The notes beneath the pieces were generated by a model that worked only from the letters and a program-made list of their open reading frames with translations, did not search any database and had not been told where the DNA came from. The translations under genes were made by a program, and so were the position numbers. A stretch of 64,000 nucleotides of DNA from Ginsengibacter sp. (GTDB lineage Bacteria; Bacteroidota; Bacteroidia; Chitinophagales; Chitinophagaceae). The stretch covers positions 28,142 through 92,141 of the forward strand of contig JBQCFI010000289.1 of the NCBI GenBank assembly GCA_051959325.1. Reading direction: 5' to 3'. Shown here piece by piece: positions 8,655-54,586 of this stretch (its first letter is position 1; each line of letters starts with the position of its first letter).

Positions 8655-8677
8655 ATAAAAGTGCTTTTACTGTTCTT
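8655..8677. repeat. 23-bp exact repeat, copy 1 (contains palindrome TAAAAG-TG-CTTTTA)
   Basis: ATAAAAGTGCTTTTACTGTTCTT, identical at 11303-11325. Confidence 0.85.
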
Positions 8678-8709
8678 CAAATTTTCTCCAGAATCTGTTT
8701 TTACATTTG
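8676..8709 (+). promoter_or_regulatory. Response-regulator-type direct-repeat box plus -7 box
   Basis: TTCAAATTTTCTCCAGAATC, 6 nt, TACATTTG. Confidence 0.7.
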
Positions 8710-11492: not shown

Positions 11493-11526
11493 TTCAAATT
11501 CTCTTCAGATTCAGTATTTAGGTTTG
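11493..11526 (+). promoter_or_regulatory. Direct-repeat box plus -7 box
   Basis: TTCAAATTCTCTTCAGATTC, 6 nt, TAGGTTTG. Confidence 0.72.
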
Positions 11527-18006: not shown

Positions 18007-18040
18007 TTCAGATTTTCTTTAGAATCTTTGTCTTTCTTTG
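18007..18040 (+). promoter_or_regulatory. Direct-repeat box plus degenerate -7 box upstream of PAP2 #2
   Basis: TTCAGATTTTCTTTAGAATC, 6 nt, TTTCTTTG. Confidence 0.55.
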
Positions 18041-18064: not shown

Positions 18065-18616
18065 ATGTCATTGTACGATTACGACCGGCATCTGCTTGAA
18101 TGGATCAATCATAACAGAATATTTTATTTAGATAATTTTTTCAGATTCATTACAGATACTGCAGGAGCCATCGCGGCCGCAATCGCAGTCCTTATTATTA
18201 TTTATGGATTCATCAAAAAAAACGGTTTTTTAAAATACAGAAAATATCAGGTTGCATTTGCATTTTCTATCAACGCAATTGTTATCAATATTCTTAAATA
18301 TTCAATCAACAGGCCACGGCCTTTTGCAGTTGATAAATATATTGAAAAATTAACCGGTGCCGGCAGCCCTTCTTTTCCATCGGGGCACACCGGCGATGCA
18401 ATGATAGTGGCTATTTCAATGTGTTTACTATTTGCCAGGCAAACGTGGCTGCTTGCCATTATCTGGATTTGGGCGGTTGCGGTTGCTTATTCGAGGATGG
18501 CATTAGGCGTTCATTATCCGGGCGATATCTTAGGTTCAGTAGTTATTAGTTTGATAGTGGCTTTTGCTTCTCAAAAAGTTTTTAACAAAATAACGATCAG
18601 TCAAAATAATAAATAA
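18065..18616 (+). CDS. PAP2-family membrane phosphatase #2
   Basis: KYSINRPRP, FPSGH, SRMALGVHYPGD. Confidence 0.92.
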   Translation: MSLYDYDRHLLEWINHNRIFYLDNFFRFITDTAGAIAAAIAVLIIIYGFIKKNGFLKYRKYQVAFAFSINAIVINILKYSINRPRPFAVDKYIEKLTGAGSPSFPSGHTGDAMIVAISMCLLFARQTWLLAIIWIWAVAVAYSRMALGVHYPGDILGSVVISLIVAFASQKVFNKITISQNNK

Positions 18617-19672: not shown

Positions 19673-19709
19673 TTTATTCGTTTTGAGCAATATTGGAATA
19701 AAGCATTAT

Positions 19710-19846
19710 TTAAGTTTTAGAATTATATAATTTCAATTCAAATTCCTAATTAATAAAGCTAGCATCCGCCCTGTAAGGCTACCAGGGATATCCACCTATT
19801 ACATCGCCAGGAAAATGAGCTCAAGATAAACCCTGCTGCAGCATAC
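19710..19846 (-). pseudogene. Decayed 3' fragment of a PAP2 gene (copy of the 3' end of 21553-22140)
   Basis: Shares TTACATCGCCAGGAAAATGA, AGATAAACCC and AATTTCAATTCAA with the 21553-21690 region and the same ...KT* end. Confidence 0.8.
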
Positions 19847-19878: not shown

Positions 19879-20982
19879 TTATTTTTTGACTCCAATAATA
19901 ATAGCATTTGCTACAGGATGATTGGCAGTAAATTTTAATCCTAAAAGTGAAGCAATTGTTTGTGCAAATTGCTTTTGATAAATCTGCATTTCTGTTTTTA
20001 ATTCACCTTTTGCAGGAATATCTGGCCCCATTACTGCAAACCATATCTCATTTGCGCCAGGAATATCACTTCCGTGGCTTGTCCATTGATTTTTATTATT
20101 ATCGCCGCGTCCATGGTCAACTGTAATGAATAATGAAGTTTTGTTCTTGTATTGCGGCTCACTTTGAATATAATTCCAAATGTCTTTTACCCATGCATCA
20201 AACTGATGCGCCGATTCCAGATAATCTTTGTAGTGACCTGCATGCGCCCATTCATCAGTTTCGCCATAAGCGATGTAAAGTAGCTTCGGCTTTTTGGTTT
20301 TCAAATATTCCATTGCTTCATATTGGGTAAACACATCAAGACATTCATCCATATCCCAGGGTTTATAAGAATCTCTGAGCATGGCATTAATCATCTTTTC
20401 TTTCGACGTTGCATTTTTTCCACCTGTTGGCGCAAATGCGGCTATTACCGGAAATCCGCAACGCGGTTTATTTAAAATTCTGTCGAAGGCTTCCCATGCG
20501 CCAAAAGCTGCAACACTATTTTTGAATTTCGGTTGCTTATTAATAAACTCCAAAACATTGGTATTGGGATTATTTTTATAATTGTTGGAATTAATTAACG
20601 TATCTACATAACCACAAAATATTTCGCTGTAGCCTGGATACGAGAACCAGTAAGGGTTTGAATTATTCACCTTATTTCCAAAAATACGATTTCCATATAT
20701 TTGTCCGTTTGCTGCAATCGTATTCCAAAGAAAAGGGAGCAATTTTTTTCTTCTCTCAGAAACATCGTTCGCCCAATATTTTTTAAAGATAAAAGTGCTG
20801 TCGCCCTGATTATATTTTCTGCGATTTGCAATCGCAGAATCCATTCCGCCAAATGCCTCCTGCCAGCGAAAACCATCAGTAGTGATGATTATGATATTTT
20901 CTGTTTTTTGCTGCGCAAAAGAAGGTTTTATGTTGGTTAAAAAAACAAACATAAGCAGCCACAAGATTTTAGGTTTTTTCAT
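19879..20982 (-). CDS. Secreted alkaline-phosphatase-superfamily metalloenzyme (phosphoglyceromutase-like)
   Basis: Signal peptide from ATG 20982 (MKKPKILW); IITTDGFRWQE, SYPGYSE, GETDEWAH, TVDHG. The track's extension to 21195 overlaps EamA and is judged spurious. Confidence 0.85.
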   Translation of the reverse strand: MKKPKILWLLMFVFLTNIKPSFAQQKTENIIIITTDGFRWQEAFGGMDSAIANRRKYNQGDSTFIFKKYWANDVSERRKKLLPFLWNTIAANGQIYGNRIFGNKVNNSNPYWFSYPGYSEIFCGYVDTLINSNNYKNNPNTNVLEFINKQPKFKNSVAAFGAWEAFDRILNKPRCGFPVIAAFAPTGGKNATSKEKMINAMLRDSYKPWDMDECLDVFTQYEAMEYLKTKKPKLLYIAYGETDEWAHAGHYKDYLESAHQFDAWVKDIWNYIQSEPQYKNKTSLFITVDHGRGDNNKNQWTSHGSDIPGANEIWFAVMGPDIPAKGELKTEMQIYQKQFAQTIASLLGLKFTANHPVANAIIIGVKK

Positions 20983-21134
20983 TATTAGTATTATTATTAA
21001 AAGTATTATTATTAAATTACTACAATAAAGATGACAACATTTTTTTGAAAATACAGCCTCAGAAACATCAAAACAACGTCTCTTTTTTAAAAACAGTACA
21101 GCAGTTTTACGAAAAAGCCGAAAAAAAGCAATCT

Positions 21135-21548
21135 TTATAAAATCAAAACAAGGCCTCCACCAATAATCAATAATGCGCCAATTGCGGTTCTCCATGTTAA
21201 TGGTTCTCCTAAAAATACTACCGCTAAGATTATTGCAATCGCAACACTCATTTTATCAATCGGCGCTACCTGCGATACTTCACCTAATTGAAGCGCCTTG
21301 AAATAAAATATCCATGAAAGGCCTGTGGCAACACCCGATAAGCAAAGAAAAATAATATTTTGTTTAGTTAGCGAATGCATTGTGTAAGCGCCGCCCCTGA
21401 TAAATGCAATGCCCCAGGCAATGATTAAAATAACAATTGTTCGAATGGCTGTCGCCAAATCGGTATCCACTCCTTTGATGCCTACTTTTGCGAAGATGGC
21501 TGTCAATGCTGCAAATAAAGCAGCAAGTAAGGCATATATCCACCACAT
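21135..21548 (-). CDS. Single-domain EamA/DMT-family transporter
   Basis: ALFAALTAIFAKVG, LATAIRT, SWIFYFKAL, VAPIDKMS, FLGE. Confidence 0.9.
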   Translation of the reverse strand: MWWIYALLAALFAALTAIFAKVGIKGVDTDLATAIRTIVILIIAWGIAFIRGGAYTMHSLTKQNIIFLCLSGVATGLSWIFYFKALQLGEVSQVAPIDKMSVAIAIILAVVFLGEPLTWRTAIGALLIIGGGLVLIL

Positions 21549-21552
21549 AATT

Positions 21553-22140
21553 TTAAGTTTTAAGTTTATAAAATTTCAATTCAAGCTGTTGATAAATTAG
21601 TGCAAACATCCATCCTGTAAAACTACCAAAGAAGATTCCTCCAATTACATCGCCAGGAAAATGAACACCGAGATAAACCCGGCTATAGCAGACTAATAAT
21701 GCCCATGCAAAAAGCAAATAAGGAAACCATTTAATTTTTTGTTTTGTAATTAATGTAAGGTAAATAGTCAGACCGCTTACATTACAGGCATGAGCGGAAA
21801 TAAAACCAACCTGTCCTCCGCGATAATTGTTTACATAATGTAATAAATTTTCAATGCCGGGAATATGGCTTGGCCGCAATCTTATTTCCATTGATCTTAT
21901 AACCGTTGATGCAATCTGATCGGTACAAACAACTAAAGGAATAATTAGAAGAATTAGAAGCCAGCTTTTTTTACGGTAATAAAATATCAGCAGAAGAATC
22001 AGCAAAAAATAAAACGGATACCAGGAAGTTTCTCCGCTTGCGAACCACATAATTTTGTCCCAGAATAAATTATGATGACTGTTTATCAGCAACAATAGTT
22101 GTTTGTCCCAATAATTAATCCATCGAAGAAATGCCTGCAT
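21553..22140 (-). CDS. PAP2-family membrane phosphatase #3
   Basis: RSMEIRLRP, FISAH (PSGH variant), SRVYLGVHFPGD. Confidence 0.9.
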   Translation of the reverse strand: MQAFLRWINYWDKQLLLLINSHHNLFWDKIMWFASGETSWYPFYFLLILLLIFYYRKKSWLLILLIIPLVVCTDQIASTVIRSMEIRLRPSHIPGIENLLHYVNNYRGGQVGFISAHACNVSGLTIYLTLITKQKIKWFPYLLFAWALLVCYSRVYLGVHFPGDVIGGIFFGSFTGWMFALIYQQLELKFYKLKT

Positions 22141-22741
22141 CTTTTAAAAAATTTTGTTTAATAAAAACCCGGCTGATTATAACAGCTAAGCCGGAACTGA
22201 TAATCATAGAAGCAATGACATCACTTGGATAATGGACACCTAAAACAACCCGTGAATATGCTACCATAAACGCCCATATCCAGATTAAAAACAACCACAC
22301 ATTTTGTTTTGGAAATAAAATACTCAGGGAAGTTGCAATTAAAAAGGCATCTGCTGTGTGTCCGGATGGAAAAGAAGGGCTGCCACCACCTGATAGCTTT
22401 TCTATAAATGAATCCACTTCATAAGGCCGCTGCCGGTTTACCACCTGTTTAATGATTTCTATTATTATCGTATTAATGCCAAGGGAAATGAGTATCAGCC
22501 AGCTTTGCCTTTTTAATTTAAACCGATGTTTTACGAAGGCATATATCAAAAGAAAGACCGGTATTGCATAAGCTACAATATAAGAAGTGTTGGTGATGAA
22601 AATAAAAAAACCATCTAACGGCTTTATTCTTTCATGATTGATGAATTCTAAAAGTTGTAAATCCATTTCATACAATACACGAAAAAAATGTGCAAGAAGA
22701 AAGAAAAGAAAATGTGTGAAGGAAAGATAGAATGTGTGCAC
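22115..22741 (-). CDS. PAP2-family membrane phosphatase #4
   Basis: KQVVNRQRP, FPSGH, SRVVLGVHYPSD; start is GTG 22741 or ATG 22666. Confidence 0.9.
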   Translation of the reverse strand: MHTFYLSFTHFLFFLLAHFFRVLYEMDLQLLEFINHERIKPLDGFFIFITNTSYIVAYAIPVFLLIYAFVKHRFKLKRQSWLILISLGINTIIIEIIKQVVNRQRPYEVDSFIEKLSGGGSPSFPSGHTADAFLIATSLSILFPKQNVWLFLIWIWAFMVAYSRVVLGVHYPSDVIASMIISSGLAVIISRVFIKQNFLKDAGISSMD

Positions 22742-22775
22742 GCCTATAAGATTTAAATTTTATGATTTAAATAAT

Positions 22776-22828
22776 GCAGGCGCCATCAGTCCCTTTCGGG
22801 ACGGTTATACAGGAAGGCTCCATTTCCA
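22776..22828 (-). ncRNA. Fluoride riboswitch (crcB motif) #3
   Basis: Minus strand GGAAATGGAGCCTTCC-TGTATAACC-GTCCC GAAA GGGAC-TGATGGCGCCTGC: same layout as the copies before CLC and crcB; one A-G mismatch in the pseudoknot. Confidence 0.8.
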
Positions 22829-22836
22829 AAAGTCGG

Positions 22837-22844
22837 CAAATATA
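22837..22844 (-). promoter_or_regulatory. -7 box TATATTTG just upstream of riboswitch #3
   Basis: Matches TAnnTTTG about 9 nt before the aptamer GG. Confidence 0.65.
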
Positions 22845-22907: not shown

Positions 22908-22941
22908 CAAAACTAAAATCGAATTCTGTTAAGAATCTGAA
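22908..22941 (-). promoter_or_regulatory. Direct-repeat box plus -7 box (second, upstream promoter of the PAP2 cluster)
   Basis: Minus strand TTCAGATTCTTAACAGAATT, 6 nt, TAGTTTTG. Confidence 0.68.
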
Positions 22942-51502: not shown

Positions 51503-51863
51503 AGCTATAAAAATTAAGGGGCCATAAAATTACAAATTTTACCGTTTTTAAAAAACGATTGATAAAAAAGGAACTTTAAGTCCGCTAACAATCTAATGTA
51601 ATAAACTGCATCCGGATAACACCCAATACAACCTGGAGAACGTTTTTGTTGGATAAAGAGATTAGAAAATAGGTGCTGTTCAAAATAATTTGTACCATGG
51701 TTCATAGCTTTTTGGTGTGGTAATCATTTGAGCTATGAAAAAGGGCTTGATTTGCTTAACCCTTTCTTTTATTCTTTTTCTAGGCAATGAGAGAAAATGA
51801 ATAAATTAAAAAACGTGTTTTGATTCTTTGTGATTTCTTTTATTATCTTCGCGCACTTTTCAC

Positions 51864-51921
51864 AGGAAATGGTGTCTTCCTGAACCAACCGCTTGGCCTT
51901 ATAACCAGCTAATGGCGCCTA
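51864..51921 (+). ncRNA. Fluoride riboswitch (crcB motif) #1
   Basis: GGAAATGGTGTCTTCC-TGAACCAACC-GCTTGG..CCAGC-TAATGGCGCCTAC directly upstream of CLC(F); -7-like TATCTTCG at 51844-51851. Confidence 0.92.
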
Positions 51922-51961
51922 CAAATTATTAGTAGTAATAAACCCGTTATAATTTGTAGGA

Positions 51962-54488: not shown

Positions 54489-54508
54489 AAACACTTAATT
54501 TTGAAAAA

Positions 54509-54564
54509 AGGAAATGGAGTTTTCCTATTATAAACCGTCCTGAAAGAAGGAATGATAACTCCTG
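54509..54564 (+). ncRNA. Fluoride riboswitch (crcB motif) #2
   Basis: GGAAATGGAGTTTTCC-TATTATAAACC-GTCC..GGA-ATGATAACTCCTG; perfect GGAGTT/AACTCC pseudoknot; -7 box TAATTTTG at 54496-54503. Confidence 0.92.
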
Positions 54565-54586
54565 TTCATTTGTAAAACAAATTACA

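Follow-up and report, generated by a model that had tools for sequence, protein, structure and literature searches.

What does a fluoride riboswitch control when the genes behind it include no known fluoride exporter? Riboswitches of this class bind fluoride with Mg2+, and to our knowledge the established bacterial defence against the ion consists only of the Fluc/CrcB and CLC-F exporter families and a handful of cytoplasmic target enzymes. The question is raised by an operon in a stretch of 64,000 nucleotides from Ginsengibacter sp. (contig JBQCFI010000289.1, positions 28,142 to 92,141), here termed the window, in which a fluoride aptamer precedes two overlapping PAP2 phosphatase genes (PAP2-1 and PAP2-2), a gene for a small EamA membrane protein and, after a gap, a gene for an enzyme of the alkaline phosphatase (AP) superfamily. 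We consider it probable that fluoride frees the GUG start codon of PAP2-1 and so raises both phosphatases and, by coupling, EamA, making these genes an arm of the fluoride regulon that acts at the membrane and envelope. A sequence-only reading of the window had proposed such an arm, with EamA as a candidate new transporter of fluoride or metal fluoride; the arm itself gains comparative backing from the recurrence of EamA (six genera) and of PAP2 in fluoride operons, while the idea of EamA as a replacement does not fit what is found elsewhere.

Aptamers were called by cmscan of the whole window against the Rfam model RF01734, a check named in the sequence-only reading. The aptamer of the PAP2 operon is matched over its full length and scores above the gathering cut-off (Table 1); the segment first noted, 22828-22776, is the core of the full 22836-22770 match, and with the aptamers at 51856 and 54501 it is indeed the third of the window. 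In an alignment of 29 aptamers (four from this genome, this one included, and the rest from the same order) it keeps all 18 invariant columns. Its P1 helix forms four of four pairs, P2 is paired, and the conserved core GAUGG ... AACCG ... CUGAUG is present. Our own covariance model, R1, was built with this aptamer among its sequences, so its match here is not independent.

The pseudoknot departs from the family pattern at one point. With a six-pair model, five pairs form and the remaining one, at columns 18/75, is A.G; standard pairs fill 99.4% of pseudoknot cells across the 29 aptamers, and this A.G is the sole exception, which justifies the worry voiced when the mismatch was first noted. The pair beside it is C-G, where the other aptamers have U.G or U-A, and in a simple energy model this offsets the mismatch: the nearest-neighbour energy of the pseudoknot duplex is -6.0 kcal/mol, and those of six other local aptamers run from -5.4 to -7.7. 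The aptamer also looks like a blend of the two local types: its 5' strand, GGAGC, resembles the CrcB type and its 3' strand, GGCGCC, the CLC type. Its score is comparable with those of the genome's other three aptamers (44.8-46.6 bits). On balance it is probably a functional or near-functional fluoride riboswitch.

Around the aptamer, the leader carries two sets of signals. Directly 5' of it lies its own Bacteroidota-type -7 box, TATATTTG (22844-22837), which the sequence-only reading had also picked out and which is a consensus match only. The upstream promoter carries a direct-repeat box, TTCAGATTCTTAACAGAATT, a putative site for an OmpR-family response regulator (RR). Its 20-nt pattern, TTCARATTYTYTNNAGAWTC, has five sites in the window against 0.31 expected (8676-8695, 11493-11512, 18007-18026 and 18140-18159 on the forward strand, 22922-22941 on the reverse), the other four lying in an adjoining module of PepSY, OmpR-type RR, histidine kinase (HK), OEP-MFP-RND, DUF1232, PAP2 and HAD genes. 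The same box also precedes the PAP2 operons of genus relatives (L006, L007, L054, L055). In one of these, G017, the box (L006 1413-1432) and a homologous leader (CAGAATTCGATTTTA...) precede the PAP2-1 ortholog with 66 nt from box to start, compared with 181 nt in the window; the extra ~115 nt of the window leader correspond to the second -7 box, the aptamer and a hairpin. The shared box and leader, together with this additional segment, therefore argue for control at two levels, by a promoter that depends on the regulator and by a predicted translational gate that depends on fluoride.

The gate would be the hairpin, in which RNAfold pairs GCGCCUG, the 3' strand of the pseudoknot, with UAGGCGU, a segment that includes the G and U of the GUG start. 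As modelled, pseudoknot and start-codon hairpin are mutually exclusive, an arrangement that fits the architecture of a translational switch turned on by fluoride. An intrinsic-terminator mechanism was considered and rejected: the hairpin at 22783-22740 has no U-tract 3' of it and so is not an intrinsic terminator, and a terminator scan finds nothing at the leader, its sole terminator-like site between 19400 and 23300 falling inside PAP2-2.

The gene order that had been read from the sequence is borne out: PAP2-1 and PAP2-2 overlap by 26 nt, EamA starts 4 nt after PAP2-2, and a 152-nt gap separates EamA from the gene for the AP-superfamily enzyme. PAP2-1 keeps all three PAP2 motifs (KX6RP, PSGH, SRX5HX3D) and its best solved relative is LpxE (6EBU, E 2.9e-14); the GTG start is supported by the conservation of its N-terminal hydrophobic helix in orthologs. 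PAP2-2, with variant motifs (RX6RP, SAH, SRX5HX3D), is related to YodM/PgpB (5JKI, 8e-8) and is the usual partner of small EamA, PAP2_2-EamA pairs occurring in L051, L054, L055, L122 and L136. Neither protein matches the NCBIfam equivalogs for undecaprenyl-diphosphatase, LpxE or PgpB (best scores 61 and 44 bits, cut-offs 229-261, the score of 61 standing against a cut-off of 250), and since these scores fall so far below the cut-offs no specific substrate can be assigned. The label of lipid-carrier phosphatases in the sequence-only reading is an inference, the likeness of PAP2-1 to LpxE holding at superfamily level.

EamA consists of one repeat with five predicted helices, half of the two-repeat, 10-TM build of canonical EamA transporters such as the YddG and RhaT types. 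Its AlphaFold model has five long helices (pLDDT 74), and a Foldseek search with the model gave no significant match, the weak top matches being DMT transporters. The K+R bias is 0-2 in 30 homologs, a low value that fits an antiparallel dimer and is compatible with it without being proof. The secreted enzyme encoded beyond the 152-nt gap also scores 24.6 bits with PF00884, just under the cut-off of 25; its signal peptide was read from the sequence, and it carries DGFRW, ETDEWAHAGH and VDHG, which we take to be NPP-like motifs. A PDB sequence search with it gave no match. None of the four operon proteins has a Pfam match to Fluc/CrcB (PF02537) or CLC-F (PF00654).

Table 1. Features of the riboswitch-led PAP2 operon and its contig, and gene orders of fluoride-linked loci in other genomes
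Feature	Location	Strand	Details
Fluoride riboswitch aptamer of the PAP2 operon (RF01734)	22770..22836	-	44.7 bits (gathering score 34), E 3.8e-9, model 1-64
Fluoride aptamer	51856-51928	+	RF01734, 45.7 bits
Fluoride aptamer	54501-54571	+	RF01734, 46.6 bits
Fourth fluoride aptamer	L003 1501-1580, just past window end		before MutS-like gene
-7 box TATATTTG (TAnnTTTG type)	22837..22844	-	consensus match read from sequence; directly 5' of aptamer
Direct-repeat box TTCAGATTCTTAACAGAATT, putative RR site	22922..22941	-	pattern TTCARATTYTYTNNAGAWTC; upstream promoter
Predicted sequestering hairpin	22740..22783	-	RNAfold -15.0 kcal/mol, z -2.5 versus shuffles
PAP2-1, integral-membrane lipid-phosphate phosphatase	22115..22741	-	GTG start, 208 aa, PF01569 93 bits (cut-off 27.2)
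PAP2-2	21553..22140	-	195 aa, PF01569 62 bits (cut-off 27.2); 26-nt overlap with PAP2-1
Small EamA/DMT membrane protein, single-repeat (half-size)	21135..21548	-	137 aa, PF00892 74.8 bits (cut-off 28.2), residues 2-136
Secreted AP-superfamily (NPP-like) enzyme	19879..20982	-	367 aa, PF01676 27.6 bits (cut-off 24.3)
Degenerate frameshifted remnant of PAP2-2 3' end (~140 nt)	19709..19846	-	local alignment, repeats D3 and D11; versus 21552-21700 (-)
G155			riboswitch-CrcB-EamA
Genus g149 (three genomes)			riboswitch-PAP2_2 remnant-EamA-enolase-CLC-F
G261			riboswitch-CrcB-DUF190-Na/H antiporter-MFS-hypothetical-PLC-like-EamA-PPase
G669 (another class of the phylum)			riboswitch-CrcB-EamA-PAP2
G934			riboswitch-CLC-F-EamA-PLC-like
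G364 and G530			14-kb same-strand array: riboswitch-CLC-F-DUF190-RR-HK-sulfatase family-DUF347-PepSY-OEP-MFP-RND-PAP2-PAP2-EamA (EamA last)
G510			riboswitch-PAP2-C2H2 protein-DUF6062-enolase
L072 and L078			riboswitch-CLC-F-(DUF190)-EamA
L084			CrcB-MFS-enolase-EamA
L113			enolase-EamA-...-PAP2-PAP2
L082			divergent CrcB near EamA
L060 and L122			riboswitch within 4 kb of EamA

The case for an envelope arm rests chiefly on how often the small EamA returns in fluoride operons. The family is unusually conserved (mean column identity 82%), with homologs 69-93% identical to the window copy in Chitinophagaceae, Sphingobacteriaceae, Hymenobacteraceae, Flavobacteriales and others. We surveyed 97 riboswitch-bearing Bacteroidota genomes besides this one; 17 of them hold an EamA homolog at our threshold of >=54% identity, and in six genera (represented by this genome, G155, g149, G261, G669 and G934) the gene lies inside a riboswitch-led operon. 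By a rough estimate, the probability that EamA falls by chance into the 5 kb downstream of a riboswitch is about 0.1% per genome, for a 4-Mb genome with one or two riboswitches. In a separate set of 80 EamA loci taken from genome contigs, fluoride genes are close by in seven (L072, L078, L084, L113, L082, L060 and L122; Table 1). On a maximum-likelihood tree of 85 homologs, of which 14 are labelled as fluoride-linked, the linked copies are scattered, requiring 13 changes for the 14 labels, at least five of them forced by well-supported branches; the linkage of EamA to fluoride has therefore arisen repeatedly. Every other fluoride operon with EamA also encodes CrcB or CLC-F, and for this reason EamA looks like an accessory and not like a substitute for an exporter.

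Fluoride is one partner among several. Most EamA copies stand beside the same two-component system (TCS), OEP-MFP-RND pumps, PAP2 pairs or ArsR-ArsM-ArsC, and the RR of the EamA-associated TCS is 55-64% identical across families and 83% within the genus. From the variety of these neighbours we infer that EamA is a general member of toxic-ion and envelope-stress islands, with fluoride as one recurrent partner.

Some further arrangements were seen at these loci. At five Ginsengibacter-like loci (L056, L073, L083, L089, L100) ArsR-ArsM-(ArsC) comes after EamA, again a toxic-ion setting. In some genomes EamA opens an EamA-RR-HK operon (L091 4001-6351, with a 4-nt gap), and in L084 (4001-6524) an EamA-RR-HK unit directly follows CrcB-MFS-enolase. 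Secreted proteins of 334-343 aa, resembling Zn-dependent phospholipase C (PLC) or S1-P1 nuclease, adjoin EamA in G261 and G934, two independent fluoride operons (L133 3934-4965; in L143, on the reverse strand, a 334-aa open reading frame after EamA). The contig L107, binned as Rhodanobacter (Pseudomonadota), has the gene order of the Hymenobacter contig L102 and an EamA at near-zero tree distance from Hymenobacter copies; it is probably a mis-binned contig and not a case of cross-phylum transfer.

Counting riboswitch-PAP2 pairs across Bacteroidota, as the sequence-only reading had suggested, places PAP2 genes behind riboswitches in at least three further lineages (G510, G669 and genus g149), counts near riboswitches being lower bounds since the PAP2 search covered the genomes outside a second batch of 34. 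In G630, and at two loci of G325, PAP2 genes directly precede riboswitch-CrcB. Behind fluoride riboswitches of two genomes, G510 (L127) and G630 (L129), comes a small C2H2/zinc-ribbon protein (~100 aa), which lies between PAP2 and DUF6062-enolase in the former and before CrcB in the latter; both genomes are of classes other than that of the present one.

The two components appear to fare differently where they have been recruited. In genus g149 the catalytic half of the PAP2_2-like gene is gone (the tblastn match covers residues 12-116 only) and EamA is intact, and several fluoride operons hold EamA with no PAP2 at all. The decay of PAP2 and the operons with EamA alone therefore make EamA look like the component under selection in the fluoride context, and we take these patterns to point to EamA, more than PAP2, as the part selected there. 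The g149 operon (L130, L131, L132; G501, G617, G576) is 99.9% identical in DNA across three species-level genomes, and its occurrences are for that reason counted as one event; such identity between species suggests very recent horizontal spread.

The setting of the PAP2 operon is itself exceptional. About 45 kb of a single 97.6-kb contig holds all of the genome's four fluoride riboswitches, which lead, respectively, CLC-F with DUF190; a CrcB-DUF190-MFS-hypothetical-enolase-pyrophosphatase (PPase)-metallophosphoesterase operon; a MutS-like gene; and the PAP2 operon. Among about 1,100 sampled Bacteroidota genomes (samples of 301 for the order, 401 for the phylum and 401 for the class) any fluoride riboswitch is found in only 8-11%, and this genome alone has more than three; four per genome is exceptional. 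At a distance of 29-32 kb from the PAP2 operon stand CLC-F and CrcB, both led by riboswitches of their own, so the description of a system with no known fluoride exporter holds for the operon and fails for the contig.

How such an operon came to be can be read in part from its relatives. The nearest PAP2-1 orthologs (50-65% identity in G017, G002, G009 and G024; 46% in G008) belong to PAP2-(PAP2)-EamA operons in which neither Rfam nor R1 finds a riboswitch, and none was found by either model upstream of the closest PAP2-1 orthologs in 40 relatives. The riboswitch-PAP2-1 junction at the centre of the sequence-only reading is therefore lineage-specific and not conserved in the nearest relatives, where the two-component-regulator box is the sole driver. 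A metagenome scan with PAP2-1 returned four loci, the best of which (82% identity) ends inside the gene and so leaves the leader uncovered. From sequence comparison, the riboswitch is a recent insertion into the leader of an older, two-component-regulated operon.

The distal part of the operon also appears to be an addition. Directly after the NPP-like gene lies the PAP2-2 remnant (Table 1), so that remnant and intact PAP2-2 bracket the EamA and NPP-like segment. In the metagenome relative L139, whose PAP2-1 and PAP2-2 are 82% and 92% identical to those of the window, PAP2-2 is followed directly by convergent HAD-PAP2-RND genes, with neither EamA nor the NPP-like gene. The remnant and this gene order together lead us to propose that EamA and the NPP-like gene entered together by recombination within PAP2-2; the segment appears to have been inserted in this lineage, with the remnant as a recombination scar. 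With the copies found in PAP2-PAP2_2-EamA operons of Hanamia/Ginsengibacter the window EamA shares 92-93% identity. The NPP-like gene was considered as a core member and rejected: it is absent from L139 and is not found beside EamA at the other loci, and its inclusion in the original cluster does not extend to the conserved unit.

The mechanism we propose for the operon follows from the predicted folds. As long as fluoride is absent, GGCGCC, the 3' strand of the pseudoknot, would pair around the GUG start of PAP2-1 and hide it; with fluoride, the pseudoknot would form, the start codon would be freed and PAP2-1 translated. PAP2-2, through its overlap with PAP2-1, and EamA, through its short gap, would probably be translated by coupling. 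Two of the products would be lipid-phosphate phosphatases of the LpxE/PgpB/BcrC type, facing outward and independent of metal; the third would be a half-size EamA transporter of five helices, probably active as a dimer. The three would work alongside the CLC-F and CrcB exporters of the same contig without replacing them, as an arm added to a regulon in which exporters and spare copies of cytoplasmic target enzymes are already present. What the arm does we suggest more tentatively: the phosphatases may sustain lipid-phosphate turnover (of undecaprenyl pyrophosphate, phosphatidylglycerol phosphate or lipid A 1-phosphate) when fluoride poisons cytoplasmic Mg-dependent phosphoryl-transfer enzymes or depletes divalent cations, and EamA may move some substrate tied to that stress.

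Several observations weigh against this account. The A.G stands at a covarying position of the pseudoknot and could weaken or abolish switching. No second genome was found with exactly this riboswitch-PAP2-1 junction, the sequence of the nearest metagenome relative being truncated upstream, and the translational switch directly gates the first cistron, PAP2-1, only. The three g149 loci are a single event. At about 90% of the 80 small-EamA loci the neighbours are TCS/RND, ars or other genes, none of them a fluoride gene, and fluoride may be only one of several stresses that EamA answers. Taken to its end, the doubt about the aptamer would mean that it was recently copied and is weakened or dead, that the operon is in practice under the two-component regulator only, and that the fluoride link is non-functional here. 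The uniqueness of the mismatch, the mosaic of local CrcB-type 5' and CLC-type 3' strands, the relatives that lack a riboswitch and the operon's own regulator box would suit such a history, which we nevertheless judge unlikely: the score is on a par with those of the three other aptamers in the genome, no invariant position is lost, the C-G in place of U.G holds the pseudoknot energy in the normal range, the aptamer comes with a -7 box of its own and a start-codon hairpin to match, and PAP2 and EamA are linked to fluoride in other lineages. A different doubt concerns the stress itself. The genes could belong to a metal-cation envelope defence regulon (TCS, PepSY, CusB-type RND, PAP2, EamA and sometimes an EptA/LtaS-like sulfatase-family enzyme) that lowers the phosphate charge of the envelope and pumps out cations, the real stress being metal-fluoride complexes or a fluoride-driven loss of Mg/Ca. 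PmrAB-type logic of this kind is established in Proteobacteria. In many genomes EamA and PAP2 are accompanied by the same RR, HK, PepSY, OEP, MFP and RND, the module is fused behind riboswitch-CLC-F-DUF190 (G364) and CrcB-MFS-enolase (L084), PAP2-1 is LpxE-like, and, according to a review, transporters of divalent cations are over-represented among the genes of fluoride operons (PMC11139923). Against this, EamA is also found with only CrcB or CLC-F and no such module, and we give this explanation little probability.

Two further explanations place the transported substrate at the centre. In the first, which takes up the idea of a new fluoride or metal-fluoride transporter from the sequence-only reading, EamA is itself an exporter of fluoride or metal fluoride, a third family working as a dual-topology dimer like Fluc. 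Riboswitch-controlled transporters usually move the ligand, EamA has been recruited to fluoride operons repeatedly and stays intact in g149 while PAP2 decays, its K+R bias fits dual topology, and it is highly conserved and mobile-looking, like a resistance gene. The constant company of CrcB or CLC-F, the many copies in non-fluoride contexts (TCS/RND, ars, beside PAP2) and the absence of homology to Fluc or CLC nevertheless make direct export quite unlikely, and MFS and Na+/H+ antiporters are likewise common in fluoride operons without being fluoride exporters (PMC11139923). A broader form of the idea, in which the small EamA is a dedicated fluoride-stress transporter (either such a third exporter family or an obligatory partner, as a dual-topology dimer) repeatedly attached to CrcB/CLC-F operons by mobile elements, we also regard as improbable; were it true, the TCS-RND-PAP2-EamA module would be an unrecognised envelope response to fluoride or metal-fluoride stress. 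Alternatively, the operon could supply phosphate: outward phosphoesterases (PAP2, NPP-like and, elsewhere, PLC-like) would release phosphate or phospho-head groups, EamA would import them, and raised cytoplasmic phosphate would protect against fluoride. EamA neighbours are often phosphoesterases (PAP2, NPP-like, PLC/S1-P1-like in G261/G934, APP1-type phosphatidate phosphatase), and fluoride induces phosphatases and phosphate importers, with phosphate protective (PMC11139923). We see no Pho-type regulation, however, DMT transporters are not known as phosphate importers and the NPP-like gene is not conserved, and we think phosphate supply very unlikely. An envelope arm behind a fluoride-responsive gate thus stays our preferred account.

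Set beside known systems, the locus is part familiar and part new. Baker et al. 2012 and Ren et al. 2012 are reportedly the papers on the fluoride riboswitch class. With the crcB motif (RF01734) the leader shares the full-length match, P1, P2, five of the six pseudoknot pairs and the conserved core nucleotides, as well as the position of a predicted ON-switch before stress genes; the genome's other three copies control targets of the classical sort, namely CLC-F, CrcB-DUF190-MFS-enolase-PPase and the MutS-like gene. It differs in the single pseudoknot A.G, in a platform predicted to occlude the start codon instead of forming a terminator, and in its genes, since the papers searched name no association with PAP2 genes or with a half-size EamA. 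Full-text literature searches returned no paper linking PAP2 or EamA to fluoride or to its riboswitches, the gene tables of Baker et al. 2012 lying outside their coverage, and a search on fluoride inhibition of undecaprenyl pyrophosphate phosphatase returned nothing relevant.

The riboswitch class and a broad fluoride 'super-regulon' with phosphatases and assorted transporters are already established (PMC7266159, PMC11139923). The FRM operon of Enterobacter cloacae (PMC5533749) and reviewed operons (PMC11139923) follow the same logic, fluoride inducing exporters together with ion transporters and phosphoryl-transfer enzymes, among them enolase, PPase and HAD phosphoesterases (PMC5533749, PMC11139923). 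In contrast, the enzymes here are integral-membrane PAP2s acting outside the cytoplasm and paired with a DMT half-transporter, and the locus also carries a two-component-regulator promoter. Compared with LpxE, PgpB and BcrC-type PAP2 (PDB 6EBU, 5JKI, 4PX7), the window proteins have the PAP2 catalytic motifs, except that in PAP2-2 the first motif has R in place of K and the second reads SAH, not SGH. EamA recalls Gdx/SugE, which is governed by guanidine riboswitches, and the ArnE/ArnF lipid-carrier flippase subunits in being a small multi-helix protein that must oligomerise; it likewise has a low charge bias, occurs in resistance islands and stands behind a toxic-ion riboswitch in several genomes. 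Unlike the SMR type, it has the five helices of one EamA repeat and not four.

The locus adds new members to the known fluoride regulon, and its main new point is the recurrence of EamA, which on comparative grounds is a good candidate for a new helper in fluoride resistance. It shows a riboswitch dropped into the leader of a two-component-controlled operon, giving two-layer control, a natural design that synthetic circuits and organofluorine bioengineering can draw on. An orphan EamA family thereby gains a concrete and easily testable phenotype, and the recurrent riboswitch link to a DMT half-transporter and membrane PAP2s points to an unstudied envelope and membrane side of fluoride toxicity.

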